Of a stretch of DNA of 32,000 bases, positions 1 through 23,100 are shown piece by piece; the first letter of the stretch is position 1, and every line of letters begins with the position of its first letter. The stretch is from Mucisphaera calidilacus (GTDB lineage Bacteria > Planctomycetota > Phycisphaerae > Phycisphaerales > Phycisphaeraceae): NCBI RefSeq assembly GCF_007748075.1, contig NZ_CP036280.1:360001-392000 (forward strand). The letters are read 5' to 3'. The position numbers and the translations under genes were made by a program. The notes under the pieces were generated by a model. That model was not told where the DNA came from, ran no database searches, and was given only the letters and a program-made list of their open reading frames with translations.

Positions 1-771
1 TTCCCGGAGGATCTGGTTCTTGAGGCTGCGCGTGACATGCAACGCCCCCACGAGGCAGTGCCCAGTGGCACGGCTGCTCTGGACTGGCACGCTGGCCCGA
101 GGCTGGCGTGGGGCGAGCACCCTCCGGATCACTGGCGTGCGATCACATTCTGGGGGCAGGTCTACGAGGCTGAGGGGGGCAACCCTTCGGGCAATAGTCG
201 CGTTCAGATCCGGGATTTACGGCTGGCGGTCAAGAGCCTCTCGGATGGTCGATGGCATCTGCTGCAGGACACTTCCGGTTTCGAGGGTGCTTTCTTTCGA
301 GAGGACTTCACGGACAATGACAGCTGGGACGCCTGGCTTCACGCCGAGCAAGAGGGTGCCTCGGTCAGGCTCCCCAATGGTCAGGGGCGCAACTTTCACT
401 TCTGGCCTGATGTGGACCGCGCGACGTTCGCGCTTGCGGACATCGACGAGGTGATGGTGAGTGTGGACGCCCGTCTGATTGTCCATGATCCATCGGGACC
501 TGACGATCGCGATCAGGCTCGATTGATGATGAGTGTCGGCGCCGATTACTGGCTGAGTCAGACGGCGGTGTGGGACGGCTGGAAGACCAACGGTGACGTC
601 GGTATCGGCCGTTTCGCGTTCATCGGGCGTGATTGGCAGACTTACACGATGACCACGCTCACGGTTGCCGAGGCGCGGGATGAGTTTCCCGTGCCCGAGC
701 CGGGGGCCGCGTCGCTTGTTGCCATCTGCCTTGGAACGCTCTGGTGTCGACGGAAGGGGGGTTGTTCGTGA
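1..771 (+). CDS. PEP-CTERM sorting-domain protein, 5'-truncated by the window edge
   Basis: Frame 1 is open from nt 1 (FPEDLVLEAARD precedes the first ATG at 37). Stop is TGA 769-771. The C-terminus EFPVPEPGAASLVAICLGTLWCRRKGGCS shows a PEP motif, a hydrophobic helix and a basic RRK cluster. I do not recognise the body of the protein. Confidence 0.8.
   Translation, partial: FPEDLVLEAARDMQRPHEAVPSGTAALDWHAGPRLAWGEHPPDHWRAITFWGQVYEAEGGNPSGNSRVQIRDLRLAVKSLSDGRWHLLQDTSGFEGAFFREDFTDNDSWDAWLHAEQEGASVRLPNGQGRNFHFWPDVDRATFALADIDEVMVSVDARLIVHDPSGPDDRDQARLMMSVGADYWLSQTAVWDGWKTNGDVGIGRFAFIGRDWQTYTMTTLTVAEARDEFPVPEPGAASLVAICLGTLWCRRKGGCS
691..756 (+). other. PEP-CTERM sorting signal (VPEP, hydrophobic helix, RRK)
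   Basis: VPEP is encoded at 691-702, GAASLVAICLGTLWC at 703-747 and RRK at 748-756, six codons before the stop. This matches the exosortase-dependent PEP-CTERM layout. Confidence 0.8.
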
Positions 772-3128: not shown

Positions 3129-4490
3129 ATGTCGATGATTGATCGAGTCTCTCGCGTTCCGGTTCTGTGTTTCGGCTCGCCCGTCTACTGGGAGCGTGAG
3201 GAAGCGCTGCGGGCCGCGTGCCGCGAGGTTGTCTCGTGGTTGTCGGCGGAGGAGGAGGGGCGGTCATCGCCTCGGCCTGAAGCCGTTCTGATCCGTGAAG
3301 AATCCGATTTGTTGCGGTGGCGGGCTGAGCGGTCGCGTCGTGACGGGATGGTGATCTTCGTCGCGTTGAGTGGCGGTGTGCAGCCGCTGATGCTCAAGGC
3401 GGCCGAGGGGCGCGATCATGTCGTGCTTGCGCACGCCTACCTTGCTCAAGGCTCAGAGCGTTTTCGTTCGCTTGCGGGTGAGCTGATGCACCGCAACGCG
3501 CACCCGGCCTCGACGGACGTGTATGCGTGTCTGCGTCGTCAGCGTCAGGGCGTCACGTGGGCGTCGAGCGCGTCGGAGGTCTGGGATGCCATGATTGGCT
3601 GGCAGGCACGCGAGCGGATGCGTGGAGCGCGGATCGTCATGATCGGGGAGACGGAGCCGTGGGTGATCAACAGTTGCCGGTCGCCCGAGCGTGCCCGCGG
3701 GGTTTTCGGCTGCGATGTTGTGCCTTTGCCGCTTGAGGTTCTATTGGATCGTGCCCGTTCGGTGACCGACGAGCAGGCACGCGAGCACGCGGATGACTGG
3801 GTGGGCGGGGCTCAGGGTCTGGTGCAGCTGGATCAGGCCGACGTGCTGGCGGCCTCGCGGGTGTATTGTGCGATGGACGCGATTCTTGCCGAACACGGTG
3901 CCGACGGCCTGTCGATCGCCTGCTTCAGTCTGATTGGTGCGCTGGACACGACGAGCTGTCTTGCGGTGAGTACCTTCAACGATCGTCACGGTCGACTGGC
4001 GGCCTGCGAGGGTGATCTTGATGCGGCTCTGACGATGCTCATGCTCAAGGCTCTGGGAGCCACCTTCGTCTGGGTGGCCAACCCGATTATTCACGGTGCT
4101 CGCACGCTCGATCTGGTGCATTGCACCGCGCCGCGATGTGCCTGCGGTGGTCAGCAGCCTTACCGCCTGCTGCGTCATCACGAGAGCGGCCGCGGCGTTG
4201 CTCCGGAGGTTGCGTTGCCCACGGGTCGGAGCGTGACGCTGTCGAGGTTGGGTGATGATCTCTCGCGCGTTGCTCTGCTGGAGGGGCGGACTCATGCGGT
4301 CGATCATCTCCCGGCGTGTCACACGCAGCTGCGCATCGAACTCGATGCCGGGCAGGACGCCATCGAAGCGTTGCTCGGAACGCATCTCGTCATGACCTAT
4401 GGCTCGTGGGCCGGGAGGATCGAGCACTTCGCGCGGTTTGCGGGTCTGGAGACGGTCGGCAGCGTGTCGGTCAGCGATGTGTCGTGCTGA
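3129..4490 (+). CDS. Putative sugar isomerase of the L-fucose/L-arabinose isomerase superfamily
   Basis: Long ORF with a stop at 4488-4490. ATG 3129 (MSMIDRVSRVPVLCFGSP) is preferred over the track's 2970 start, which would overlap the AraC gene. GADGLSIACFSLIGALDTTSCLAVSTFND...RLAACEGDLDAALTMLMLKAL...LVHCTAP...LRHHESG resembles the C...C / (A)E-G-D / HC pattern of fucose/arabinose isomerase-like enzymes. Pairing with a divergent AraC regulator fits sugar catabolism. Confidence 0.6.
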   Translation: MSMIDRVSRVPVLCFGSPVYWEREEALRAACREVVSWLSAEEEGRSSPRPEAVLIREESDLLRWRAERSRRDGMVIFVALSGGVQPLMLKAAEGRDHVVLAHAYLAQGSERFRSLAGELMHRNAHPASTDVYACLRRQRQGVTWASSASEVWDAMIGWQARERMRGARIVMIGETEPWVINSCRSPERARGVFGCDVVPLPLEVLLDRARSVTDEQAREHADDWVGGAQGLVQLDQADVLAASRVYCAMDAILAEHGADGLSIACFSLIGALDTTSCLAVSTFNDRHGRLAACEGDLDAALTMLMLKALGATFVWVANPIIHGARTLDLVHCTAPRCACGGQQPYRLLRHHESGRGVAPEVALPTGRSVTLSRLGDDLSRVALLEGRTHAVDHLPACHTQLRIELDAGQDAIEALLGTHLVMTYGSWAGRIEHFARFAGLETVGSVSVSDVSC

Positions 4491-4857: not shown

Positions 4858-5149
4858 AGAGGTTTGGGACGGGTTGGCGAGAGGGAACTGGTCCGGGCCA
4901 GTGAGGGAGTCGCCATGTACGGTGATGAGACTGGTCTGGATCTGACTTGGAGAAGTGCATCTACTGGAAAAGGCATCCACCTGCATTGGGCGAGGGTTCG
5001 TCTGTCCGCATCGATCTGTGCGGGTGAGGGTGTCGGCTCGTGTCTGCTCACGGGTTGATGTAGGTGCAGCGCGTTGTTCCTAAGAGCCGCGTGGAGCGCG
5101 GTGTTTGGAGTCTGTCGTGATCAATTCATGGTGGCGTAGAAGGGGACGT

Positions 5150-8100
5150 ATGCGGCGGCGTGTGCTGCGGTCGCTGCGCAGGATGCTCGGTCTGAAGCGG
5201 AATCGGCCGTCGCTCGCGCAACGGGTTGAGCAGCTCCAGACCGGTGCGCGCCTGCGGCTGCGTTGTTTCCTTGATCGTGCCCTGCTCCGGCCGTTGGCGG
5301 GTCGTACGACGACTGCCAGTGCGCTCCTGGATCCGAAGTTTGAGAGTCTTGAGCCGCGGCTGCTCCTCTCGGCCGATGCCCCTGATTGGTCGCTGTTTGA
5401 TGAAGATCAGCACGGCGTCGCTGCGGAGTCACAGGTTTCGGAGCCGGGGACGGAAGATCTGCCCGCGTCGGCTCGGTCCTACAGCCTCCTGGCCGCTTCG
5501 GGGTCGGTGGGCGGCACGCTTTTCGCTCAGGGCAGCGGTGACGCGGATGGTGTCGCGGGGGTGTCGGTGGATGTGGAGGACCTCCGGGAGCGTATGGAGG
5601 CGTTGCGTGACGACTGGCTGGGATCGCTCGATCAGTCGGACGTGTTCAATGTCGAGGTTCCGTTCATCGATGCTTCGCTGGCTGATGTTGTTGATCTCGG
5701 CAAGGCGTTTGATGTCGCGGTGCTACAGAAGATCGCGTGGGGCGGTCTTGAGACGCTCGAGGATTTTGCGGACGAGTTGTCGCGTGCGGGCGCTTTGGCT
5801 GAGGGTCAGGCCGTCAGTTACGACCCCGCTTCGCAGCAGGTCACGATTCCGATCGACTTCGAGATCGCGTTGCACGAGGTTGACCTGCGTGACCTGAGCC
5901 GGCTGGGCCTGGTCGACATCGATCGCATGGTGGATGAGGGGCTGGTGCAACTCGGCGACTACGTCGATCCCGATGACCTGCTGGATCACGGTTACATCGA
6001 CGTGGCGGGGATGATCGGACTGGGCCTGATCAGCACGGGTGACGTCGCGGACTGGGGGGCTGTGGATCAGCAGGCCATCATTGACGCGGGGCTGATCGGT
6101 GTTGCTGGTCTCGCTCAGCACAATCTGGTCGATGGTTCGGATCAGGTTGATCTTGACGCGCTGCTGGACTCGGGTCTGGTCACGCTCGGCGATCTTGTTG
6201 AGAAGGAGTTGGTCACTTACGCCTCGATCACCGGTGGCCTGGGTTTTGTGCAGGAATTGAATCTCCTGGCCACCAACATCGCGGACTACGGGCTTGATCT
6301 CTCGTCGCAGCTGCAGAGCGTTGACCTGATCGACCTCTCGGCCGCCTTCGCCGCCGACGCCAACGCCTTCACGGATCTGATCGCGGCGGAGTTGATTGGC
6401 GTTGCTGACCTCGCCATCGATACGCTGGCTCTTGACGACCTGATTGCGGGTGGTGTCACGACGCTGCAGGAGCTGGTGGACGAGGGCATCCTGACGGCTG
6501 ACGACCTCAGCGACACCCTCCGTCTCGAGGTTGTGGAGCTTCTGGACCAGACCACGTTGACGCTGAGCGGGCTGATCGACGCGGGCGTCATCCGTATCGA
6601 GAGTTTCCGGTCGGACGCGTCGGTTACGGTGCTTGACCTCGTGGGCGACGGTGTGGCCACGCTGCGTCAGCTGGTCGACGCGGGCCTGATCACGCCTGAC
6701 GATTTCGGCCCGATCACGATCCCGGAGAGTGAACTGGTCAACAGCGGGTTGCTGACCCAGTTCCAGCTTGATTTCAACGCGTTGGTCACGGCGGGTCAGG
6801 TTGCCCTCTCGGACCTGGTCGAGGGTGACTTCGTTGACCTGCTCGATCTCATTGAGGAGGGGTTACTCGACGTCCATGACCTGGCTACCTCGAGCCTTGA
6901 TGCTCGTGCGTTGCTGGAGAGCGGCCTTGCCGACCTGCGCACGCTTGCGGACAACGCCTTGCTGCAGGCTGACGCGCTGTTGGATGGCGTGTGGGCCTCG
7001 GCGCATCAGTTGGCCGATGACGGCGTTTTGACGCTCTCGGAGTTGGTGTCGAGTGCGCTCGTTGACGCGGAGGACATGATCCGTGATGCGGTGGACATCC
7101 GTGCGCTGCTGGACGCGGGCGTGACGGACCTGCTGAGTCTTGCTCAGAACGATGTGCTGTTGCCCGCTCAGGTGGCGCTGGATGCCGTGCTCTCGTCGGA
7201 CGTTGCGACCGAGGCGACCGATCTGTTCAACCGCATCAGCACCGCGGGCGGGGTGATCGGGCCCGGATCGATCATTGATCTGGACGACCTGCTCCAGAAC
7301 TTCCCGGTGGGGCTGAGTGACCTGGTCTACTTCGGGCTGGTGACGCAGGACGTCCTGCCCGATCTCGGGTCTGTCGATCGCTCGGCGTTGCTTGCCACGA
7401 AGGCTATCGACGAGAGCGTGCTGCGGCGCAAGGGTGCCGAGGGTGCCGTGAACGAGGGGCTGCTCACGCTTGGGCAGCTCAGCGACCTCGGGGTCATCGA
7501 TCGGGCGAATCTCAAGGATCTGGCGCCGATCGAGATTGATGCCTTCGAACTGACGGCCCAGGCCGTCGCGCAGGCTGATGCGGACGGTTACATCATTCAC
7601 GGGAGTGGTGCCACGCTCGCCGGCCTGCTGGCCCGGCCGGACGTGACGCTTGAGCGTCTGCTTGATCTCGGCCTTGTCGCCACGACCGATCTCGGCGATC
7701 TGGGGACGATCCTGCTGAGCGATCTTTTTGTGCTGGGCACCCTGAGCCGGGCCGACATCCTGGCCAGCAACGTTCTCGACGCGGAACTGCTTGACGGCCT
7801 GATTGCTGTTGACGACACGGTCGCGATCGCCGACCTCACGACGGGCGGGCTCGCCTCGCTCGGTGACCTGGTGGACGCCGGCCTGCTGGGTCTCGCCGAT
7901 TTCAATCTGGTGCTTCCCTTCCACACGCTGACCGAGAACGATCTTCTGGCCTCCGGGCTGATCACGCCTGCGCGTCTTGAGGGCAGCGGGCTGCTGCTGA
8001 CCGGCGGCACGCCTGAGCAGCGTTTTGTTCGGACGCACGAGCTGATCACGCAGGGCTACGCGGAGCTCTCGGACCTACTGGATGCGGGGCTGATTGATGC

Positions 8101-11100
8101 CTCGCGGCTGCTGACTACGTCTCTCTACGTCACGCTGTTGCAGGACGCGGGTGTCCTTGCGATGAATGCTCTGGAGGCCCATGGTCTGGGGCAGAATGGC
8201 GACGTCGATGTTGAGGCGCTCGTTGCGACGGGGCTGGTGACGCTTGATCAACTCGTTGCCGTCGGCCTGATCGCGGAAGAGGATTTCTACGACGACAACC
8301 TCGTTCTCCTGCGCAACCTTGTGGATGCGGCGTTGGTGACCGCTGCGGATCTCGCCGCCGACCAGACTCTGGATCTTGACGATCTGCTCGACACGAACGT
8401 GGTCGGCCGGCAGTACGTCGACGACGCGGGTCTCGTGGATGAGGTCGCGGGGGTGTCCGATCGGATCCTGATCACGGACCTGCTGGGGGACCCGAATGTT
8501 ACGCTCGCCAGCCTGATCGAGTCGGGGGTGTTGTCGTACCGCGACTTCGCCAACATCGCGTTTGCTCAGGAGGTTCTGGAGGCCACGACGCTGGAGGGCA
8601 GCCCGCTCTTTGTGGAGGGGCAATTCGATGATCTCGTTCGTCTGGGCAGTGTGGCTCTAGGTGATCTGCTCGGCTCGATCCTGTTCGATAACAGCCTCGA
8701 CGCCTATGTAGACGCCGAGTTCCTCGATCGCTTCGATTTCAATGATGTCAGCCTTGACGCTGCGGCTCTCGAGGGTGCCTTTGCCGTTGATGTTCCGGAT
8801 GATCGTGGCCCGACGATCGCGCTCTACGACCTGCTGACGACGTTGCCGGCGGTCACGCTTCAGAGCCTGATTCAGAACGGGTTCCTCTCCGATGCGGATC
8901 TGGTCGATCCGGCCAAGCCGCTGGACATCGTTGACCTTGAGGCTTCGGACCTGTTTGAGACGGGCGACCTGCTGAACTTCGTCAGCCAGCGTTCGGTCTA
9001 CCTCCACGATGTTGCTGAGGACGTCAACCTCGCCACGCTCGCCGAGGCCGGCCTGCTGGTCGCGGGTGACCTGATCGTGAACCGGGCCGGCGAGCTCGCG
9101 GAGTTCGTAGACGAAGGACTCCTGGGCAAGCAGAGCTTCCGGGACGTCGCGATCCCGGTGGCCACGATCACGGACAACACGACGCTGAGCAGCACCGACC
9201 TCAACAATCAGGGGATCGTTGATGCGGGCACGGTGTCGCTGCATGACCTCATCGATGCGGAGATCATCGCGCTCGATCAGCTGATTACCGATGGCGTTGT
9301 CACGGTTGCCGATCTCGTAGCCGACGTGACCTCGCGTGACGTCGATGATGTTCTCGATGCCGACGCACTCGAGCGGGCGATTCTCGAGGACGCGGGTGTT
9401 CTGACGGGCGCGGAGAACGATCGGGTCCGTCTCAACGGCTCCAGCAGCCTCCTGAGCGAGAACCTGGCTACGCTGCTGGCGCTGACCACCCAGCGTGTGG
9501 TGAATCCCTCGCACTTCGACGCGGGTGCTTCGGTGGACAAGGATGACCTTGTCACGGCGGGCCTGCTGACCGAGGTTGATCTCATCGAGGCCGGTCTCGT
9601 TTCCGCCGCGGAATTGTCGGTGACGTCGATCGGGCTGAAGCAGCTCGATCAGACGGGTGCTCTGCCTCTCGACCGACTCACGAGCATCGACGACTACATC
9701 GATCTTGGTGTGGTGACCCAGCCGCAGGTTGATGGCGTCGACACACTCGACAAGGCCGACCTGATCGCTTCGGGGCTCGTCAACGAGACCGAACTCCTGC
9801 AGGCGGGGCTGCTGGGTGAGCAGATCGAGCTGAGCGACCTGTTGACATCGGGGCTGGTCACCACGGAGCAGTTGTTGCTCAACAGCGTTACGTACAGCGA
9901 CGGGTATGTGGCCACGCAGGATCTGGTCGACAGCGGGCTGACGTCGGTGGCGGCGTTGGAGGGAGCTTCCCTGACCGGCACGCAGATCGATGTCGCGGAC
10001 CTGATCAACTCGGGTCTTGTGACGCTGCTTGATCTTGTCGACAACGGTATCGACCTGGACGACCTGCTTGCGGCCTCTCTCTCCGGCGGGACGCCTACCG
10101 AGCAGCAGGTCATCGATGCGGGGCTCTTTGATCCCAGCGTCGATATCGCTGAGCTGGTCTCTTCGGGTCTGCTCTCGGTGCAGGACCTCATCGACGGCGG
10201 TGTGCTGCCCGCGACTATCGAGTCCGCGGTGCTCGTCGGCCTGAATCTTGTCACCGGCACGCAGCTCGTGGCCGCGAGCCTGATCACGCACGGTCAGCTC
10301 GACAGCCAGACGTTCCCGTCTGTCTCGCTGACGTCGCTGCTGGCCGCGCTTCGCGATGGCGGGGACGCGGGCTCGACGCTCATCAATCTCACCGATTTGC
10401 TCAAGGCGGGTTTCTTCACCGCTGATCAGCCTCGTGCGGACCTGATCTCCGCGGGCATTGCCTCGGACATCGCGATGACCGGCGCGGGTCTTGTCGGTGC
10501 ATCGGTTGACGTGCAGGATCTGGTTCAGGCCGGCCTTACCACCTTCGAGAGCCTCGACCTCGGAGGCTTCCTGACCACGGGCGTCGATTACCGCACCGTG
10601 GTGGGTGCTCCGTTCGCTGCGGCGACGGGCGTCACGATCATCGACGATGACCTTGTGGGCGCGGGCCTGCTGTGGAAGCGTGTCGATCCCGATGCGCTGG
10701 ATGCGCTGGGTCTGGCCACGCTGGCCGATCTCGCTTCGGCCGGGCTGATTGTGGATCCGCTGATCAGTCGGGCTGAGCTTGATGAGCTCGGGTCTGTCGA
10801 CGTGGACATCCTGCGGCTGCCGCCGGTTGATCTCGCTCGGCTACTTGCCACGGATCTCGTTGACGACCGGGGCGAGGTCGATCTCGACGCACTTCTGGAC
10901 ACGCCGGTTGCGGGCGGTGACGGTCTGGTTCTCGTCAACGTCGCCGACCTCGCGAGGCTGGGTCTCATCGACTGGACCGACGTCAACGGGCACGACGTCA
11001 ATTACTTCGGGCTGAGCAATCGCTCGCTTGATCTCGCCGGCGATTTCGGGCTGGAACTTGTCGGCATGACCACCGAGGCCACCGCTGACCTTCGGGCCAC

Positions 11101-14100
11101 GGCCTCCGCGGGCTTCGATCTCGTGATCGATCTCAACGGGCTCGACAACGCGAGCGGCATCGTCTGGCTGCTGGAGGATGCCACCGCGACCGCGCAGCTG
11201 GCCTTCAACGTGATTGACCTTGACGTTGCGGCGCGGCTGGGCTTCATCGGCGTCACGCTTGCGGACGTATCGGGTCTTGAGAGCGGCGTTGCCGTGGACC
11301 TGACCCGCACGATCACGGCTGATCTTGACGGCAACGACGCCACGACGAATGATCGCCTCGTCGAGCTGGATTTGCTGCTGGGTGCGTCGCTCGACGAGCA
11401 CCTGGTCGGTTCGGTCTCCGGCTCCGCGGCCGCTACGCTCCGGGGCATCAAGGTGAATACGGGTATCGGGGGCATACCTGTCGGTCACGGTGCGTCGGTG
11501 ATCCTGACGGTTGCCGATCTCGAATCGGCGAAGGGCGAGGGTTACTACGAGCTCGCGCTGAACGATCTGCCGGGCATCTTCCGCGTCCACGAGTTGCTGA
11601 AGATCGAAGACCTGATGTCGATGCTGATCCGCACGCAGGACTACGTGCGCAAGGCGCTCGATCAGCTGCCTTTCTGGGCGACCGACCCTCAGTCTCCGCT
11701 GTACGAGTTGACCAAGGACGTCAAGATTCCGGTGATCAACAAGTCGCCGGGTGAGTTGCTCGAGCTCATCGGCCAGCTTGACGACGCTGTCACCGAGGTC
11801 CAGCGGTTCCTCTACGACCCGGAGAACGATGCGCAGCGGCTTGTCGCGTTCGTGATGGACGCTCTGGGCCTGGACATCGAGGCGGATTCGGACAAGTTCA
11901 GTGTTTACATGGAGGGCAACATCCTCCGGCTGCGGCTGAACCTGATCGAGGATTTCAGCGAGGACATCCCTCTCGATTTTGATCTGTCGGCGCTGGCCGG
12001 TGCGATCTCGGGTGATACCGCCGAGATCGCGGGCATCGACAGCCTCGTCTCGACGGAGGGCAGCGGCACGATCGCGCTCAAGGGGTTTGCGGAGTTCCAG
12101 ATCGACGCGGGCATTGATCTCGGTCCGCGTGCCGACGGGCAGGCGCCGGATTACTTCCTGTACGACTACGATGCGGGTCTTGAGCAGGGCACGCGTGTCG
12201 AAGCGGGCTTCAAGGTTCTCGGCTCGGGCATCAATCTCGACTTCGAGATCTTTGATGCCATCGGCGTCTCGTCGACCGGTGCGCTGATCCTGATGGACGC
12301 CGACAACAACCTGACCACCAATCCCGAGTTGAGCGATCCCGACGACCGTTCTGACTTTGTGCGTGTTGTCTTTGCGCTGGACCAGCAGTCCGGCACGGGG
12401 GTAACGGACGACGGCCTGTATCGATTCGACGAGACGCTGCTCGGCGACAACGTCGTGGTTGAGGTCAACGGTGGTTTTGCGATTCTTCTGCCGATCGAGA
12501 TCAACATCTTCGGCACCGTGATTGACTTCCCGGGCGAGCCGCTGTTCATCCGCACCAACCCGGCCTACATCACGACCGACGGCGGCGTGTTCGAGTCCAA
12601 CGACGGCCTTGCCGAGGTCTTCCGGCATCTGTTTGGCACGACCGATCCGACGCCGGGCCCGCACGACCCGATTCTCGTGAACGCGCCCGACATCGCGGGT
12701 GCTCTGGGCAATCTTGCCAACAGCAAGATCCGTGAGCTGCTCGAGCAACTCGCCGGCCTGATCGAGGGTCTCAAGCAACAGCTTCTTGACGCGAATCTCT
12801 TCGACCTCGCCATCCCGGGCACGAACCAGTCGATCGATGATCTGTTCGGTGCCGGCAACGACAACGGCCTGGCGGGGGTTGATACCGCTACCGGCGTCGA
12901 GGCCTTTCTTGATATTGACACCTACGTTCTTGAGTACCTCAAGACGGTGACCTGGGTGGGTGCCGGGTCCGTTGCTGACGGCACGCTGACGGCGAACGAC
13001 GTCTTCAATGGTCTCGCGACGTTCCTGACCAACCACTGGGTCCCGACGCTGCCCGGCATCGGCGCGGCCGTCGGCGGTGGTTTCATCACCATCACCAGTT
13101 CGGGTGATCAGCTCTCGCTGGACGTCAACGGCAACTACACCTTCAACAAGGATCTGCTCTGGGACCTGGATTCTCAGCTGGGTGACACCGGCCTCTCCCT
13201 GACCGGCGACCTTAACTTTAATGCCGCCTTCAATGCGCTGCTCGACCTCGACTTCGGCGTCAACCTCGCCACGGGTGCGACCGAGTTCAACTTCAATGAG
13301 TTCACGTTCGACGGGTCGTTCGACAGCACCTCGCTCTCGCCTTCGCTCGACTACAACGGCATCAGCACCGTCTCGGTCAATAACGGCACCGTCGATCTCG
13401 ACCTCGGCGGCCGTGTTTATACCGATGGCAGCGGCGACTTCCGGTTCGACCCGAGCATGGCGGGTGACGGCTCGTCGCTTGAGAACAGCATCGAGATCGA
13501 GTTGCCGCTCGAACTGCTGAGCAATCCGGTTGGCACGATCGGCTTCGCCGACACCGACTTCTACGACGGCCAGCTCGACCCCGGTTTCACGGCTGATCTG
13601 AGCGGACTCACCGGCATTCTCGACAACGCCGCGTACATCGCGCTCGACCTGCTCGGCGAGAGCGTCGATGACCTGCGTGGCACGCTGCTGACGCAGTACG
13701 ACCAGCAGGGCGACCCGGTTCCCGGAACCGGCAGCTTCCTCGACGAGAACATCGCGGGCACTGACACGTCCATCGCTCGCGTGCTCGGCCTTGACAGCCT
13801 GCTCAACCTCGGCGACTACATCCGCCACTATCTGCGTCCCCAGCTCCCCGAGAGTGGGACTTTTGAACGCGACCTGACCATTCCGCTGGGGTATCTCGAC
13901 GGCGGGTCGGTTGATCCGCGTACCAACTGGTACGGCGACGCGTCGGGCAACAACGTCCCGACCATCGGGGGTCTGCTCCAGTACCTCGAGGACAACTGGC
14001 TCCCGACGCTTGGTGGCGGGGCAGGGGGGTTCAGCTGGCAGCTCATCGGGTCCGACGCCGTAGAGATCGTCTTCACGGCCAACAGCCCGTTCACGCGCAC

Positions 14101-17100
14101 GGTGGGTGTTGATCTTGGTGCCGATGCCGAGAACCTCGGGCTGGAACTCGAGGCCGAGGCCAATTTCGAGCTGGACATCCAGCAGGACGTGATGGCGACG
14201 CTGCTGTTCGACTGGGGGGCGGACACCACTTCCTTCACGCTGGATCACTACGACTTCAGCATCGACGCCGACGTGAATGACCTCTTCGCCGGCGCTTCCT
14301 TCGGTCCGCTGGACATCTCCGTCGGGCAGGAGGCCCCCGATGGCTTGAAGGGATCCGCGTCACTTGACCTTGCCGGTCGACTCTCGTTCAACAACGCCGT
14401 TGAGCTCGCACGCACCGACCTGCTCTTTGAGGCGGGTGACCTGGCCTTCCGACTCACGCCCGAGCTTGACCCGACCAACAATCTTGAGATCGATCTTCCG
14501 CTCTTCGCGTCGCTGGCGGGCGTTGATCTCGGCTCGGTCGAGCAGGGGAGTATTCCGCGTGTCGGCCTGGCGGGTTCGATCTTCCCGAATGCCGCTGGCG
14601 CGGATCCGCTGCGCTTCACCTCGGAGAACCTCGAAGAGCTTGTTGACTTCAGTGATTTCAACATCGGCACCTTGATCGCCATGATTCAGGGAACCATCAA
14701 CTGGCTCGAGGAGATCAGCAACGCCGATTTCCTGAGCACCGAGATCCCGTTCACCGACAAGACGCTGGGTGACGTTCTGGACTTCGCGACGGTCTTCTCC
14801 GACCAGGTTCTCTCGAAGATCGATTTCGAGCGTATCCGTACCGTTCAGGACTTCATCGACGCGTTCACGCGTGCCGGCATCCTGCCCGAGGACGCCAACG
14901 TCGTCTACGACCCTGCGACGCAGACGCTCCGGTTGCCCTCGCTGTTCGACTTCAATCTCAGCGACTTCGGTCTCCGTGATCTGCAGCGGAACGGCGAGGT
15001 CACGTTCGCCAACCTCATCGACATCGGCGCACTCGACCCCGAGACCGTTCTGAGCAAGGGCACGTTACTCGACAACATGCTCGGCTTGACGCTCATCCAG
15101 TTCCGCGAGTTTGTTCGCTGGGAGCTTGTCCCGGAGGATGCCTTCGACGGTACGGGCATCACTGTCGCCGACCTCGAGTCGCTGGGCCTCATCGAGGCCG
15201 GAGCGCTCAACGGGACGGGTCTGGTCGCGGCGGGTCAGATCGCTGTGGAGGACCTGATCGGCACGGATGCTGTCAACGTCTCGCTGCTCGATCTCATCGA
15301 CGCCGACCTGCTCGGCAGCGCCGACCTCACCCTGCCTCTTGGTGATCGTCGGGTCCCCTACATTGATCTTGTCGAGTCGCGGCTGCTGAACGTCAACGAG
15401 CTGACCGCTCTTGGTGTCACGCTCTACGACCGTGACGGCAACACCACCTCTACGCCCTCTGACGCCGAGACCGTCGATCTCCAGGATCTGATCGACCTCG
15501 CCCGCTTCTCGCTCACTGAGCTGTTGGACATGGGCTTTGTCGGGCGTTCCGAGTTCAATGACGCCACCACGATCACCGTGGCTGCTTTGGAGGCGGCGGA
15601 GCTGATTGCCGAGAACGCGCTCGACGGCGAACCGATTGTCACGGCCGGCGAGGTCACGCTGGGCGACCTGCTCGCCGCCGAGTCACCGGTGTCCGTCGCT
15701 CTCGCTGACCTGATTGAGAACGGTCTTGTCGGCCGCGGCGACATGACGCTGGGCGACATCACCCTCGGCAACCTCTCCATCGATGGCTTTGATCTCCACG
15801 ACTTTGTCGACCTTGGTTTCCTCGACCAGAACACGGTCTCTACGTTCGTTTATGACCGCTTTGGTCTGGAGGATGTCCCCCTTGACCTCGGTCTTGATCT
15901 CGGTGGTGTGCTTGAGCTCAGCACGACCGCCACCGCCGACCTCGTTGCGGAGATCGAGGCGGGTCTTGACTGGGTTATCGATCTCGATGGTCTCAACGGC
16001 ACCGAGGGCCTGACGATCCTGGTTGAGAACGCTCACATCGCCGGCAGGGCCTGGTTCGACGTGAACGATCTCGAGATGGGTGCCAAGCTCGGGTTCCTCG
16101 GCCTCACGGCGGGTGGAGCGGGCAGCGGCAGCGGGATCCACTTGTTTGCGGAGGCGAGTGCCACGCTCGACGCGGACGGCAACCTCGACACGACTGATGA
16201 CCGTACCTTCGAGTTGTTCGATCTGTTCACCGGTTCGCTGTTTGACAATCTGGTGCTCGACTTCGACGGGTATGCCGAGGCCGCGCTCAACAACTTCCAG
16301 GTGGATGGCTCGATCCCGGGTCTGAACGAGGCCGCGCTCGCCGGCCAGGAAATCTCGATCGCCATTCCAAGCATCGTGAACCAGACCGGCACCGAGGTTC
16401 TCAAGAGCGGCGAGAAGACGCCGGCGGAGATTCAGGAACTCAAGGACCTCGAACGCATCGTCATCATCCTGCCGGACTTTGATGACACCTTTAACTTCAC
16501 GGATCTCGATTTCGCCAGCATCATCACGATGATCCGTCAGGGCGTCGAGTTGCTGGATCAGGCTCTGACCGATGTCCCGTTCTACCGCGAGTCCATCCCC
16601 GTCGTGAACCGTTCGCTCGAGGACGTTCTCGACTTCATCAACGATCTCACTCAGAAGCTGGAGGAAGCGGCCAACAACCCGGCCGCGGTTCTGCAAGACG
16701 TTGAGGAGGTCATCGAGGATGCGCTCGGCATCGGCGACGATGCGCTCGACCTGTTCCTCGATGGTGATGCTCTGCGTATCGACCTCAACTGGCAGCCCCT
16801 CGCCTACGAAGAGATGCTGCCTTTCGCCTTCGACCTGGGGGGGATGAAGGACCTCTCGGGCGACAGCAATGCGTCTGAGCTCAGTGGTATCAACAGCCTC
16901 GTCGACGCCAACGGCGCCGTCTCGCTTTATGCCGGTCTTGAAGCGAATCTCCAGTTCGGCGTGGACTTCAGCGAGGTCGACACCGGCGGGCTGGGTGCTC
17001 TGGAGTTCTTCTTTGTTGACTACGACGACAACGGCACGCCCGGCAACACGGCAGACGACTCGGGCACGCGTGTGGCTTTCGAGGCCCGGCTTCTCGCTGA

Positions 17101-20100
17101 CGATCTTGACCTGACCATCAACCCGTTCGACATCGGTGTCGCGGACGGCTTCGCTGTTCTCGACGGCGACGGCGATCCGCTGACCGACGACATGGCGGCG
17201 TTCACGCTCTTCCTCGATCAGGACGGCAACGCCGTTCCCGACGACGGTCGCTTTGTTATCGGCAGCGAGAGTCTCGGCGACAATCTCGACTACGCGATTG
17301 TGGGCGGGTTCGCGGTCGAGCTGCCGCTTCAGGTATTTGGCACCACGCTCGGCACGCCACTCGGCGTCGCGACCAATCCCGTCTATGGCACCGACGGCCT
17401 CAAGGAACTCTTCCTCCACCTGACCAACGACAGCGGCGCGGGCGCGAGCGATCCGATTGTTCTCACGTACCCCGACCTGACCGGCGCGCTCGGCGGCGAC
17501 TTCGGTCTGCTCGGCATCCTCAACGACCCGACGTACATCCTGGATGGTGTCGATCTTGCGCTCGGTGGCGTTCAGGAAGTCGTGGGATCGGGTTTCGCGC
17601 AGGATCTTCCGCTGATCGGTGACGAGCTCGGCGAAGCGGCGACCTTCATCCGTGACCTGCGTCAGGGCTTCCTCGCCGACCTGCGTGCCAAGCTCAGCGG
17701 CCCGGGCCAGGCGATCAATTTCATTCGTGAGGCGATGTGGGACGCTTTCGGTCCGACCGGCCTCGACATCCTGCTCGACCAGAGCGGTGACGGCCAGCTC
17801 GCCATCGAGGACATCGAGGTTGCCTGGTACGACGTGGATGGCAACAAGATCAAGGACTGGATTGTCGGTGAGGCCGTTCCCGAGTCCGGCTTTGTTTACG
17901 ACAGTTCCGGCGTGTTCGTCGGCGACGGCGTCGCGATCCCGGCAGGGGGGTTCCAGGTCTCCGACGACACGGATGCCATTCAGTTCGACCTTGATCTCGG
18001 CGGCACCGTTTTTGGCACCGGCGTCGATATCCCGCTCGAGATCGATCTGCCCGGCTTCGGTCTTGATGTCGACGGCGGCTTCGGTGTCGCGATGGACTGG
18101 TCCTACGACTTCGGCATGGGGCTGAGTCTGAACGACGGTTTCTATCTTGCGACCAATGACAAGGCGAATGACGAGGACCCCGAGCTCGAGGTCGAGATCG
18201 GCGCGTTCCTCGACGGTAAGCCGCTCGACAACACGGTCGTGACGCCTTTCTATGCGGAAGGCACGCTGCTCTTCTTCAAGGTGACTGCCACCGACACCGA
18301 CCGCGACGAGGCCAAGCCCGGCTTCCAGCCCAGCGGCGTCTTCGGCTTCCTCGAACTCGACGCCATCGGCGACGACACCACCGGGCGTCTCACGCTGAAT
18401 CACTTCCTCTCCTCGCCCATCGAGGACGTCTTCGAGCTTGACATGGGCATCGAGGCTGCGCTGAATCTCGAACTCGGTCTCGAGCTGGATGGCGTTGAGG
18501 GTCTGCCGCGTCTCGTGGCGGACCTTGTTCTCACCTGGGACTGGACGCTCCAGGAAGGCGCGAGCGAGCCGGACATCGGGCTGTATGACCTTGGCCTTGA
18601 GGTTGGTTCTTTTGTTTCCGAGGTGCTCAAGCCCATCACCGAGAACATCTCGGATGTTCTCTCGCCGTTCGAGCCGGTGGTGGACGTGTTGCTCGAGCCG
18701 ATCCCCGGTCTCGACGCGTTCATTGAGGACCCCAATCTTCTCGGGCTGATCAATTTTGTCGCGAGCCTGACCGGCAACCCGGAGATCCCGCCACAGTTCT
18801 TCTACGCGGTTGATTCCATGCTGGACATCGTCGCGCAGGTCAACGCCCTGCTCGGCACCGACGGCCGCATCCTTCTCGGCGACATCACGGGTCTGGGCAC
18901 GACCAGCGTCGAGAGCACGCAGGCCGAGTCCTCGATCCCGGCGGGTCTCCAGTCCTTCCTTGATCAGATTCGGCTCGATGGCGCCGGCGGCACGCCGGCC
19001 AACAGCGGGTTCTCCTCCGGCGGCTCGTCGACGGAGCGAAGCGGTTTCGAGATTGTTGAGTACCTGACCGACATCGGGAACTGGGCATCGCTGATCACCG
19101 GCGGCGACGCCATCCTGTTCACCTACGAGCTGCCCTACCTTGAATGGGGGATGAGCTTCAGCCAGCAGATCGCGCAGATCCCGCTCGGCCCCATTCAGAT
19201 CGTGGTCTCGGCCGTCGGATCCTTCGAGGTCTTCGCGGACCTCGGATTCGGTTACGACACCTACGGCATCCGCAAGGCCATCGAGACCGGCAATGCCTGG
19301 CAGGCGTTCGATGGCTTCTTCGTGGCCGACTACGCGCTGAGTGGTCCCAACAAGGGCCAGGAGAAAGACGAGTTCGGCTTCTCCGCGGAGATCGGATTGG
19401 AAGCGGCACTCTGGCTGCTGCTCGTGGAGGCCGGTATCGGAGGCGTGATCGGCTTCGAGGCGGGTCTCGATCTTCAGGACGTGGTCGACGACGGACGCAT
19501 CCGCGCTTCCGAACTCGCCACCATGTGGACCTACACCGGCAACGGAGCCCCGGGCGGTCTGGCGAACCTCGTCAACCTGAGCGCACGCGCCTTCTTCGAG
19601 GCCTACGCGTTCGTTGACGTCGGCATCTCGATTCCCTTCGTCGGCAAGATCATGAGCCGCGTCGTCGACTGGACCATTGCCGACGTCACCATCTTCGAGC
19701 TTGAGTACAACGCGCCCAAGGTCGAGCCGATCCTCGCGACGATCTCCGGCGATCAGCTCATCCTCAACACCGGCAAGCGTGCGGGCGACCGCGAGTACCT
19801 CGACTTCACCGACGGCGGCGAACGCTTCACCGTCACCGGTGACAGCTCGAGCATTACTGTCAAGTACGACGAGTGGGAGCAGACTTACGACGGCAGCTTC
19901 ACCACCCTCATCGCCGACGGCGGCGCGGGCGACGACGTCTTCAACGCCAGCGGTCTTATGGGTGTGAACGTCGAGTTTGACGGTGGTGTCGGCAACGACG
20001 CGCTGACCAGCGGCTCGGGCACGGCCACCATGACGGGCGGCGCGGGCGACGACCGGCTCATCGCCACCAACGCCACGGGTGTCGTCTACCTCGAGGGTGG

Positions 20101-23100
20101 CGACGGCAACGACACGCTCTCCGGCGGCTCGGGCGTCAACACGCTCATCGGCAACAGCGGCGACGACCGACTCACCGGCGGCGACCAAGCCGATGTCATC
20201 GACGGCGGCACCGGCGTCGACACGCTCAACGGCGGGGCCGGTATCGAGACTTATATCTTCGGCGACGGCTTCGGTGAGGACCGCTTCCAGGACACCTCCG
20301 ACGCCAGCATCCTCGACTTCTCCGCGCTCTCGGACGACATGGACGTTCGCATCACCGAGAGCCTGGTTCAGATCGCCACTGATTCCGAAGAGCTGCGTAT
20401 CAGCCGCCCGAATATCAGCACGATCATCCTCGGTTCGGGCAACGACAACATCAGGCTCAGCGAGCTCGCTGAGGGAACGCTCATGCTTGAGGACACCGGC
20501 GGCGCCAATACCTACACCCTCGAGATGCAGGCCCAGACCAACAACAAGGGCGACGCCATCGTCCAGATCATCGACAGCGATGATCAGCACGACGAGCTGA
20601 TTCTCAACAATCTCGTCGGCATCAATCCCGACGACGTCGGCGACGACGTCATCTATATCAACAACATGGAGATTGAGAGCGGACGCCAGTTCGTCCGGTT
20701 CGACAACAGCCTCGAGCTGATCACCATGAACGTCGTCGACTCCTCGATCGACGACACCGCCACCACCACCGACTTCGCCTCCGACCTCACGATCGACTCG
20801 AACCACGGCGGCGGAGCGATCATTGGCCAGTCGGGGCTCTACGTCAACGCACGCAACCTGACGGTGCTCTCCAGCCTGGACGGGCGTGATTTCGTCTTTG
20901 ATGTCGAGACCGATTTCGTTCTGGAGGGCAACGTCCACGCCACCGGCGAGTTCGATGTTGCTGCCAATACGGTCGGCACGCTGTCAACGCTCGGCGAGGT
21001 GGCCTACAACATCGACGCCAACGACATGGACTGGCACATCCGGGTCAGCGACGTCAACGTCACCGGCAACCTCAACGCCATCAACAACGGTCGCATCGCG
21101 ATCACCGCCGACAGCACGGACACCGGCGCGGGCGAAGAGGCCAACATCACCCTCCACAACGACGTCACCAGCGGCTCGGGCGACAACGCCGACCAGCTCG
21201 GCGGCGGCGAGTTGGAGTTCATCGCCTCCGGCGACATCACCCTCGAGAACCAGCCCGCCTTCCTTGGTGCCGGCTCCCACCTCATTCTCGCGGCCGACAA
21301 CATCTTCAACGATGACGCGCCTGACAACCGCATCGTCACCACCGTCGGCGGCATCACCGTCCTCACCCGCGACGAGGGAGCTGTCAGCGGCAGCGAGATC
21401 ATCATCCGCGAGACCGACGACCTTGTTGTCTATGGTCTGGACATCGCCGATAACGGCGCACTCAACCCGGTCGGTCTCTCTTCTGCGCATGGCGAGATCG
21501 ACGTCCGACTCGCCGCCGTCGACGCGCGCCTGACGCTCGACTCCGGCAGCATCGTGACTCGTGACCCCGGCCTCGATATCACCCTGACCGCCGACGACTT
21601 CGACTTCCTCCCGGCACCCGACGCACGCTCTGACGAGCCGGACCGCGCGATCGGCGGCATCATCGGCACGGGCGACCTCATCATCCGCGCCACGAACGCT
21701 TCGCGCTTTGTCATGGGCACCGCGGCCGAGGCCCCCGAGGGCAACGACTGGACCGACATCGCCGCCGACTTCCCTGACTTCACCAACTACCCGGGTCACG
21801 TAGGCGGCAACTTCACCGGCGAGGGTCTTGAGGCCACCTACGACGAGGACGGCTCGCTCTTCACGGATACCGTTCACCTCTCCACGCGCGACCTCTCCGC
21901 GATTGCGGACGGTTTCAGCCTGATCACGATCGGCGAGGACGTCGGCGACACGAACCCGACCTACGAGATGATCTTCGGCGATGCCATGGACGCCCAGGTC
22001 GTCAAGGACACGGGTCTCGACCGCGTCCGGGACTCGTCCTTCCGCGACGACGTCATCCTCAACGCCGAGCGCATCTTCATCGAGGGCGAGGTCGAGGCCA
22101 TCGCGCCGCTCGGCCAGTCCGCGATTCTGTTCGACGTCAACACCGACCGGCTGCACATCAAGTCGAAGAACATCAACAACCCGCTCGGCGGCACGGACTC
22201 GGGTATCACCGGCGACCTGCTCAACCTGCTCGGTGTTCGCAACCGCATGATTGTCGACGGCTGGGTCCGCACCGACGGCGACATCATGGTCAACATCCAG
22301 GGCGACGGCGAGGATTATGCGTCGCCGATGATGAGCGACGTTGCGTATCTCGACCCGAAGCGACTCAACAACTTCATCCAGGGTGTCGCGGGCACTCTCG
22401 AGACCAACGCCGACGGCGGCGTCATCGAGATCATCACGAAGAACTCCGTTGTCCTCGAAGGACGCAGCTTCGTCAACGGCACCGGCTCGCGCATCACCAT
22501 CACGCCTGGCACCTTCTTCGAGCTCGTCCAGATCGCCGGTTCGATCCAGGCGCCCGACGCGGAGGCTCTCGTCGAGATCAGCGCGCCCGAGGCCGTGTAC
22601 ATCAACGGCGAGATCCTCGCGGGTGCTGCCTATGACGGCGGCGTCAAGCGACTGACGGGCGTCGGGGCCGACGTCGTCATCGACACACCCCACGAGCTCC
22701 GCATCTTCGGCGCGATCACCTCCAGCGACGTCCTCGAACTCACCGCCGGAACCGATCAGGACTACAACCAGCGCGACCCCGAGGACGCCTCCATCCACCT
22801 CACCGGTCAGCTCACCTTCCTCGGCGACAACAGCCTCCTCCGACTCGAAGGTCCCGACGACATCCTCATCGAGGGCAGCATCTTCGGCCGAGGCGACAAC
22901 TCCGGCCTCCTCATCGACTCTCAGCAGCGGGTCAAGTTCGCCACCTCGTTCGTCGAGGTTGAGGACGGCATCGACATCTACGGCCGCGGCCAGACCGTCG
23001 ACCTCGAGACCGGCGAACTGAGCTCCGTCTACATCGCGCCTACCGCGGTTATCACCTCTTTCGATGCCGGCAGCGACATCAACATCACGGGCGCTAACGA

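Follow-up and report, generated by a model that had tools for sequence, protein, structure and literature searches.

Tandem-repeat scaffolds in giant bacterial proteins are already known as a general kind. Among the repeats that form solenoids, the ankyrin unit has 33 residues, the mTERF unit has about 30 residues with two helices and a 3-10 helix, the armadillo unit has 42 residues with three helices, and the LRR unit combines a strand with a helix. Well-known families of adhesin stalk, such as Ig-like and transthyretin-like domains, are repeated whole domains. For the stalks of fibrillar and RTX adhesins, 76 families have been listed, and their copy number ranges from 1 to 73 (Monzon et al. 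2021, PMC8286594). SHOCT (Pfam PF09851) is a two-helix domain of approximately 30 residues, indel-free and with a strongly conserved Gly and Glu, which in 89% of the proteins is located no more than 50 residues from the C-terminus and can be multi-copy, with up to 8 copies in a Naegleria protein (Eberhardt et al. 2013, PMC3581485). Here, we compare these systems with a long repeat array encoded in Mucisphaera calidilacus. The stretch of DNA that we analyzed, positions 360,001 to 392,000 of the forward strand of contig NZ_CP036280.1 (assembly GCF_007748075.1), is 32,000 nucleotides long and is referred to below as the window; the array in question, array 1, lies near its beginning, within a giant open reading frame (ORF).

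In our reading, array 1 folds into a structural scaffold of repeats that belong to an undescribed family, and its role in the giant, surface-type protein would be that of an acidic stalk, spacer or spring of fixed length. We regard this reading as evenly balanced between right and wrong; our confidence is higher for the folded, undescribed repeat family taken by itself and lower for the stalk role. The repeat family, its build of three times 11 residues from capped helices of 6 residues, and its conserved unit count all appear to be undescribed. The array, its most regular part and the enclosing frame are the following, where amino acid (aa) positions are codons counted from nucleotide 5084:

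5084-31999, plus strand: giant ORF, stop-free over this range with the first ATG at 5150, found by a six-frame stop-free scan and translation
5879-10933, plus strand (aa 266-1950): array 1, 1,685 aa, recognized by motif counts, autocorrelation, unit hidden Markov models (HMMs) and internal similarity
6422-7183, plus strand (aa 447-700): most regular stretch of array 1, eight consecutive units starting at aa 448, 480, 513, 545, 572, 604, 637 and 669

The motif run was found where a previous sequence-only reading of the window had placed it. A strict pattern, [LIVMF][LIVMFA]x[AGSDENT]G[LIVMFA][LIVMFTAGS], occurred 38 times in aa 266-2000, compared with 4.6 ± 2.0 times in 500 shuffles, and the shorter pattern G-h-h-[TSDN] (h, hydrophobic) occurred 42 times, compared with 8.4 ± 2.8 times in the shuffles. 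An 11-mer matrix derived from aa 266-1100 recovered 20 copies in the held-out region aa 1100-1975, where shuffles gave 3.8 ± 1.8, and hardly any in the other ~7,000 residues of the protein; this matrix comes from a small sample with a noisy consensus and was used for the held-out test only. Additionally, each 240-aa slice of array 1 aligned to several others with 25-31% identity and E-values of 1e-8 to 1e-23. At the DNA level, Tandem Repeats Finder detected no tandem repeat in the array, which indicates that the repeat copies are old and diverged and agrees with the nucleotide-level divergence that the sequence-only reading had described. That reading had also called the array very acidic with few Lys and Arg residues, and the composition (L 19.1%, D 13.2%, A 11%, G 9%, E 4.2%, R 2.8% and K 0.7%) with its net charge of -235 over 1,685 aa was in line with this.

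Autocorrelation revealed a base period of 11 residues, with z=11.2 for hydrophobicity and z=7.2 for identity at lag 11, so that a periodicity above the shuffled background is present. Hydrophobicity showed sub-peaks at lags 5/6, 16, 22, 27 and 33, and identity showed secondary maxima at 33 and 65-66. In a sliding window, the periodicity was evident at aa ~230-1110 and ~1290-1650, weaker at aa ~1110-1290 and from aa ~1650 to ~1950, and back at aa ~3270-3500, where a second array lies. A 29-column unit HMM, the consensus of which is TVDLDDLVDSGLVTLADLIDAGLLTAADL, found 30 units in aa 266-1889 and three more in aa 3385-3554 at an independent E-value (iE) below 0.01. The unit spacing was 27-33 residues in the regular parts of array 1. 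There is room for ~52 unit slots in the 1,685 residues, and ~40-45 Gly-turn cores are recognizable. The sequence-only reading had estimated a spacing of ~20-25 aa and 70-90 cores; these values have to be replaced by the measured period of 11 residues with a structural unit of 32-33 residues, and by the lower counts of cores and full units given here. It had placed the array at 5880-10985 (aa 266-1967), of which the start held and the end did not, as a paralogous flank begins near 10933, ~50 nt earlier. Coiled-coil hendecads were considered for the 11-residue period and ruled out, as the hydrophobic residues follow hh-x4-hh-x3, not a/d/e/h positions, and a Gly recurs at 11-residue intervals.

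To describe the unit, we used AlphaFold2 models of two slices, read as secondary structure and confidence scores. The model of aa 440-700, which was based on a 9-sequence alignment, had a mean predicted local distance difference test score (pLDDT) of 82.9 and a predicted template-modelling score (pTM) of 0.59. It contained eight consecutive units of 32-33 residues each, apart from one of 27. Each predicted unit opens with a strand of 3 residues, continues with helix 1 (xxDLvx) and helix 2 (LxxLVD), which are joined by an xGhhT linker, and ends, after an xGLIT linker, with helix 3 (xDDF) and a short loop. Helices 1 and 2 would each have 6 residues and helix 3 one turn, which gives three 11-residue sub-repeats per unit; the motif of the sequence-only reading, DLVDAGLITxxDL, corresponds to helix 2, the following linker and helix 3. 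The second slice, aa 1300-1660 (4-sequence alignment), was predicted with two well-predicted blocks of 6-7-residue helices joined by 4-5-residue linkers. Both models are consistent with the helix-Gly-turn-helix solenoid or stalk that had been guessed from the sequence, with predicted helices of 6-7 residues and Gly linkers of 4-5 residues.

The 11-residue piece reads roughly h-T-x-x-D-L-(V/I)-D-A-G-L and comprises a Thr/Ser N-cap, an Asp at N3, a hydrophobic pair, a Gly C-cap and two hydrophobic linker residues. Helix ends are commonly marked by S/T-x-x-D/E capping boxes, hydrophobic staples and Gly Schellman C-caps, and we take the conserved T, D and G of the repeat and their flanking hydrophobic residues to be helix-capping signals of this type. 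Foldseek searches with the aa 440-700 model gave no match at E<=0.001 in the PDB (best E 0.72, TM about 0.1) or in BFVD, and the best PDB match of the aa 1300-1660 model had an E-value of 2.6.

Homologous arrays are rare. A word-indexed search returned three homologues with 36-43% identity, and an exhaustive profile search returned 44 representatives of 1.84 billion at E<=0.001, 29 of them at E<=1e-10 and most of them fragments. A scan of species-representative genomes (GTDB) revealed six loci, all in metagenome-assembled genomes (MAGs), labelled Gammaproteobacteria, Phycisphaerae (two), Desulfobacterales, Pirellulales and Spirochaetota. The giant frames of these six loci and of the metagenome proteins align to aa 136-3700 of the window in a single high-scoring segment pair with 35-45% identity, and such identity across MAGs of five phyla points to horizontal transfer, binning contamination or very old descent. 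In the multiple alignment, the array measured 1,684, 1,688, 1,689, 1,714, 1,717 and 1,638 aa in six orthologues. The array is ~41% identical among orthologues, with 37-54% in the flanks, and the alignment of a 261-residue slice from nine orthologues was nearly gap-free. Such a near-constant array length at ~41% identity is unusual for tandem repeats, which usually vary in copy number, and suggests that the length itself is functional. For one orthologue pair, the ratio of nonsynonymous to synonymous substitution rates (dN/dS) was 0.136 for the array, at a dS of 0.98, and 0.099 for the module next to it. These data make the array an ancient one that is not homogenized, is conserved position by position and is under purifying selection, rather than one that expanded freely. 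Conservation per position was 0.80-0.85 at the core Leu residues, 0.64-0.65 at the two Gly residues and 0.09-0.36 at exposed positions. As the conservation is limited to the core Leu and Gly residues, it indicates a scaffold rather than a ligand surface, constrained mainly for its fold.

In one homologue, P0002 (locus L008, 17-7813 of JAGLUL010000125.1, assembly GCA_023134815.1, a 'Desulfobulbaceae' MAG), the module that follows the array runs straight into an FGGY-kinase C-terminal domain, and the next gene encodes a fucose isomerase. This junction looks like a chimeric contig or mis-join and not a real fusion.

The same repeat also occurs in a second architecture. Five of the matched proteins (P0023, P0024, P0026, P0037 and P0032) are FG-GAP proteins with Pfam E-values of 1e-30 to 1e-43. 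In P0023, P0024, P0026 and P0037, a cassette of ~235 aa, or ~7 units, lies between the 'DLVVGN.G' and '(K/R)(I/V)Y...G.G.F' segments of one FG-GAP repeat, with FG-GAP matches on both sides; ordinary FG-GAP repeats have ~6 residues at this site. P0032 is N-terminally truncated and shows the downstream cassette junction only. The best match of a cassette HMM in the window was at aa 477-677 (89.8 bits, iE 1e-29). The presence of the cassette in FG-GAP proteins indicates that the repeat is a mobile module with at least two architectures.

The giant ORF that carries array 1 has at least 8,972 codons, and its 3' end lies beyond the window edge. The sequence-only reading had missed this frame, with its LEPR-XLL motif and RTX block, as well as the second array. 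The further features of the protein are the following:

5336-5380, plus strand (aa 85-99): N-terminal LEPR-XLL motif FESLEPRLLLSAD, matched by NCBIfam NF012209 (LEPR-8K) with E 4.6e-6
5489-5878, plus strand (aa 136-265): N-flank domain of ~130 residues ahead of array 1, paralogous to aa ~3206-3299
10937-14698, plus strand (aa 1952-3205): post-array module of ~1,250 residues, directly after array 1
~14981-15793, plus strand (aa ~3300-3570): array 2, ~270 aa of the same repeat, recognized by the unit HMM, the cassette HMM and similarity to array 1
15791-17494, plus strand (aligned part aa 3570-4137): second copy of the post-array module, found by BLAST to aa 1952-2542
20087-20350, plus strand (aa ~5002-5089): RTX calcium-binding nonapeptide block, HemolysinCabind E 1.5e-7 and NCBIfam RTX_toxin region E 3.4e-12

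The collinear homologues support the plus-strand frame 5084-31999 as the true coding frame. Long antisense ORFs on the minus strand (for example, 15683-20938 and 10841-14248) reach 1,751 aa and overlap this frame; they were rejected as genes and are attributed to the high G+C content, which is 63% in the window. An ORF listing shows only such antisense frames here and leaves out the giant frame, as this frame is still open at the window edge. In array 2, three units matched at iE<0.01 (aa 3385, 3463 and 3538) and the cassette HMM matched aa 3309-3582. In a masked slice self-BLAST, aa 177-375 aligned with aa 3206-3390 (34% identity, E 1e-28), and the first ~590 residues of the post-array module are paralogous to aa 3570-4137 (BLAST, 31% identity, E 1e-48). 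As both arrays have paralogous flanks, we consider them parts of a duplicated flank-array-module block in which the array lengths differ greatly (1,685 and ~270 aa). The post-array module at aa 1952-3205 had no match in Pfam, NCBIfam or PDB sequence searches.

The N-terminal LEPRxLLSA motif, which is characteristic of LEPR-XLL giant proteins, scored 26 bits against a cut-off of 17. The homologue P0001 begins with '...VVEQLEPRILLSV', and in the homologue P0004 the related Pfam motif Planc_extracel was below threshold (21.5 against 25.5 bits). In the literature, we found only incidental mentions of LEPR-XLL. The 8,972 residues include no Cys and carry a net charge of about -1105. Two further repeat regions are present downstream. 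At aa ~6200-7860 (~23680-28660, plus strand), a different tandem repeat has at least 11 copies of 110-150 aa each, which end like '(I/L)xF(T/E)xxxxFxIxxxSxNxxLLGL', often with 'DL(V/I)DDINxAL' ahead; Pfam and NCBIfam gave no match for it. At aa ~8440-8680 (~30400-31120, plus strand), there are short repeats of the type 'DANGN(L/Y)L / D(E/D)AGxLL' with a weak DUF3659 match (E 0.015). Taken together, the LEPR-XLL motif, the RTX block, the lack of Cys, the acidity and the downstream repeats look like those of a giant extracellular or surface protein, and we infer from these sequence features that it is probably located at the cell surface or secreted. The RTX block lies mid-protein, at least 3,900 residues short of the protein end, an unusual place for one in a type 1 secretion substrate. 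Upstream in the window, the genes are not syntenic with those of the orthologous loci. The ORF at 37-771 (plus strand) ends in a PEP-CTERM-like sorting tail, PVPEPGAASLVAICLGTLWCRRKGG, as judged by eye (Pfam, no match); if real, it would imply an exosortase system in the source organism.

On the reading that we favour, three 11-residue capped mini-helices would form one 32-33-residue unit, ~50 such units would follow in succession, and the units would stack into a strongly acidic, solenoid-like scaffold; the core-only conservation is consistent with such stacking. The scaffold would act as a fixed-length stalk, spacer or spring that holds the flanking modules at a set distance, and the short form of ~7 units would serve as an insertion cassette in FG-GAP propeller proteins. 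A further-reaching version is that the unit, with its three fully capped 11-residue mini-helices and a short strand, is a new repeat fold without a solved analogue, which builds a rod or spring of ~50 units, their count near-constant across bacterial phyla, and also doubles as an FG-GAP cassette. We put this forward tentatively and think it less probable than its contrary; if true, the repeat would establish a novel class of structural elements in the giant surface proteins of bacteria.

Several observations weigh against the favoured reading. The array length is not absolutely fixed: in the Spirochaetota MAG (locus L006, CAVTHO010000010.1), the array has 1,259 aa and lacks 422 aa (~13 units), which is the only large length change among the seven orthologues. 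The better structural model was built on 9 sequences only, and the other slice reached a pLDDT of 63.8 and a pTM of 0.35. Surface location or secretion is deduced entirely from motifs, as the C-terminus and any type 1 signal lie beyond the window, and secretion genes were not found upstream in the window, where the genes encode an AraC regulator and a DegT aminotransferase and are uninformative. The FG-GAP insertion is a further point. In an FG-GAP blade, both ends of such an insert are expected to be close together. As the cassette replaces a turn of ~6 residues, its ends would be close, so that a folded-back or closed lobe fits better than a straight rod. The insertion is hard to reconcile with a straight rod and constitutes the main standing tension in our interpretation.

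Charge suggests a different role, in which the array would be a polyanionic cation- or mineral-binding domain that folds or stiffens with Ca2+ or binds metal or mineral surfaces; we consider this unlikely. The net charge of -235 and the 13.2% Asp would suit such a role, as would the RTX Ca2+-binding block in the same protein and the sediment, groundwater and soil MAGs from which orthologues come. The core D-h-h-D-A-G-h-h-T-x-x-D-(L/F) also matches the spacing of EF-hand and dockerin loops (D1, G6, hydrophobic 8, T9 and D12), and about half of the non-significant Foldseek matches of both models were EF-hand proteins. In the 12-residue Ca2+ loop of these families, positions 1, 3, 5 and 12 provide oxygen ligands and position 6 is a Gly. 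Among the 38 cores, position 1 was D/E/Q/S/T in 82% and position 12 was acidic or polar in 71%, whereas position 3 was V/I/L/A in 100% (the tally motif fixes loop positions 2-3, and the unit HMM consensus shows the same hydrophobic residues) and position 5 was Ala in 16 cores and Ser in 10. With hydrophobic residues throughout at positions 2 and 3 and chiefly Ala or Ser at position 5, two canonical EF-hand ligands are missing. The EF-hand, dockerin and RTX models of Pfam had no match at E<=1 in the array, and the RTX nonapeptide GGxGxDxUx (HemolysinCabind) was found at aa ~5002-5089 and not in array 1. The EF-hand matches of Foldseek had E>2 and TM about 0.1-0.2 and are explained by the local helix-loop-helix geometry. 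Additionally, the acidic positions are weakly conserved among orthologues (0.16-0.46), unlike the core Leu and Gly residues, and helix capping accounts for the conserved Asp at N3.

The FG-GAP cassette raises another arrangement, namely that the array is a string of compact insertion-type lobes of ~7 units (~235 aa) whose ends are close together and which mediate protein-protein or ligand contacts. The logic would be comparable to that of the I-domain inserted in integrin alpha propellers. The cassette in one blade and the strong match of its HMM to aa 477-677 favour such lobes, and the sizes are also suggestive: 1,685/236 is about 7, array 2 is about one cassette long, and the pTM of 0.59 was obtained for a slice of cassette length. 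A tiling of array 1 by seven full FG-GAP-type cassettes was considered and is unsupported, as the HMM matches were partial and overlapping, and the internal offsets showed no clean super-period of ~236 aa. The 422-aa deletion in the Spirochaetota orthologue (~13 units) is not a whole number of cassettes, and the poor conservation of exposed positions argues against specific binding surfaces. We therefore regard this arrangement, too, as having a low probability.

A tandem amplification of SHOCT would make the array a member of a named family. SHOCT is the only named family that reached a curated cut-off on the array, and it did so with its score added up along the entire array (28.1 bits, with the cut-off at 27; E 1.6e-6), while no single stretch passed. 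The reversed and the shuffled array gave no SHOCT match, which indicates that the signal depends on sequence order and direction and not on composition alone. The published SHOCT peptide VMATLEKLGDLKAKGILTQEEFDAKKAELLK (PMC3581485, Table S1) and units such as LRQLVDAGLITPDDF share L..L...G(I/L)(L/I)T.(E/D)(E/D)F, and multi-copy SHOCT proteins exist. When the unit profile was aligned with a SHOCT alignment by hhalign, 15 columns, or half of SHOCT, were covered with a probability of 13.6% and a P-value of 0.0021, compared with 0.24 for the reversed control; the SHOCT alignment was narrow, consisting of near-identical sequences gathered with a duplicated 31-aa peptide query, which makes this profile-profile comparison weak.

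Unit by unit, only one of 34 units matched SHOCT (E 0.0065), the unit consensus matched nothing, and the orthologous arrays of P0001 and P0004 had no SHOCT match at E<=1. The traits of SHOCT, namely a length of ~30 aa without indels and a C-terminal location, do not hold for the array: the unit length is 27-33, and array 1 occupies aa 266-1950 in a protein of 8,972 aa or more. Although the repeat has the conserved Gly, its second helix has one turn compared with ~10 residues in SHOCT, and the long Lys-rich second helix of SHOCT is absent from the repeat. At the acidic position, where SHOCT has a conserved Glu, Asp outnumbers Glu (13 and 4 of 38 cores). Membership in SHOCT is quite improbable in our view. 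From these tests, we conclude that a local helix-Gly-capped-helix motif is common to SHOCT and the array, which is not demonstrably a SHOCT array.

Pfam and NCBIfam were scanned on seven slices of the giant protein, and at E<=1 no Pfam family other than SHOCT matched the array. No Pfam or Foldseek match was found to ankyrin, LRR, TPR/Sel1, HEAT/ARM, mTERF, pentapeptide or HhH repeats. PDB sequence searches with the array, the unit profile and the SHOCT peptide gave no match or matches at E~1.3 (uL15 and a PilB N-domain segment), and PADLOC gave nothing meaningful. The sequence-only reading had held that the array is not RTX, EF-hand or dockerin, LRR or TPR, and both the lack of Pfam matches and the residues at the EF-hand ligand positions bear this out. 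It had also held that the family is undescribed, and that a significant match to a named repeat family would overturn this. At a robust level no described family was found in Pfam, NCBIfam or PDB sequence searches or with the unit-wise and orthologue controls; formally, the SHOCT score is such a match, and the controls revealed it to be marginal and specific to this sequence. On the whole, what the sequence-only reading observed is borne out, and its interpretation is so in part. That there is no real domain at all, and that a disordered acidic linker merely produces an apparent motif through its richness in Leu, Asp and Gly, is scarcely credible: the bias is strong (L 19%, D 13%, A 11% and G 9%), many units are degenerate and the periodicity fades at aa ~1110-1290 and ~1650-1950, but composition-preserving shuffles had 5-8-fold fewer motifs and no periodicity, the held-out test was positive, one model reached a pLDDT of 83, and the orthologue alignments were nearly gap-free with a dN/dS of 0.14.

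Giant proteins of uncultivated bacteria are mostly unannotated. In the present frame of at least 8,972 codons, only the 15-residue N-terminal motif and the RTX block match robustly, and SHOCT is marginal. With the consensus, the unit HMM and ~44 representative clusters, a searchable family is gained by which ~1,700 residues per orthologue become annotatable. If the predicted fold is right, the repeat would be an unusually small helical unit, of interest to protein design and repeat-protein mechanics. The FG-GAP cassette is a small and tractable construct with which the structure could be determined.

To place the repeat among known systems, we compared it with the families that resemble it most. 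The MshEN/T2SSE_N motif of PilB-type ATPases, which is a lead only, has a similar local sequence, L-(L/V)-x-x-G-(L/I)-(L/I)-x-x-x-x-L. Among the PDB sequence matches of the unit profile, a segment of the PilB N-domain, ALLDAGLLTDEEL, ranked third at a non-significant E of 1.4. Pfam T2SSE_N had no match on the array at E<=1, and the repeat lacks the basic and Gln residues of the MshEN motif. EF-hand and dockerin loops resemble the repeat in the spacing of D1, G6, hydrophobic 8, T/S/N 9, acidic 12 and hydrophobic 13 and in the flanking helices, whereas the repeat has V/I/L at ligand position 3 and Ala or Ser at position 5, and a helix instead of a loop is predicted just ahead of its Gly. In SHOCT as in the repeat, a short helix is followed by a turn with a conserved Gly and by a helix whose cap reads (I/L)T-x-(E/D)(E/D)-F. 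SHOCT is a single unit, usually C-terminal and Lys-rich, with a long second helix; in contrast, the array has a unit of 32-33 aa with three predicted mini-helices, almost no Lys and ~50 internal copies, and was not detected as SHOCT in orthologues. The solenoid families with units of ~30-42 residues are similar in having tandem units of about this length with two or three helices, to which the repeat adds a short strand, and in being conserved at core hydrophobic residues and turn Gly residues. The repeat differs from them in its predicted 6-residue helices, which are about half as long as usual, in the threefold 11-residue sub-period and in the lack of a sequence or Foldseek match. Finally, the array resembles adhesin stalks in that it is a long tandem array in a giant, acidic and apparently extracellular protein and in the proposed spacing of modules. 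RTX adhesins exported by type 1 secretion have their RTX block close to the C-terminus, a secretion signal at the C-terminus and neighbouring ABC/MFP/TolC genes; here, an RTX block is present, and the C-terminus and downstream genes lie beyond the window. The two differ in that adhesin stalks repeat whole domains in varying copy number, whereas the unit here is helical and has 33 residues, and both the unit positions and the array length are conserved across orthologues.

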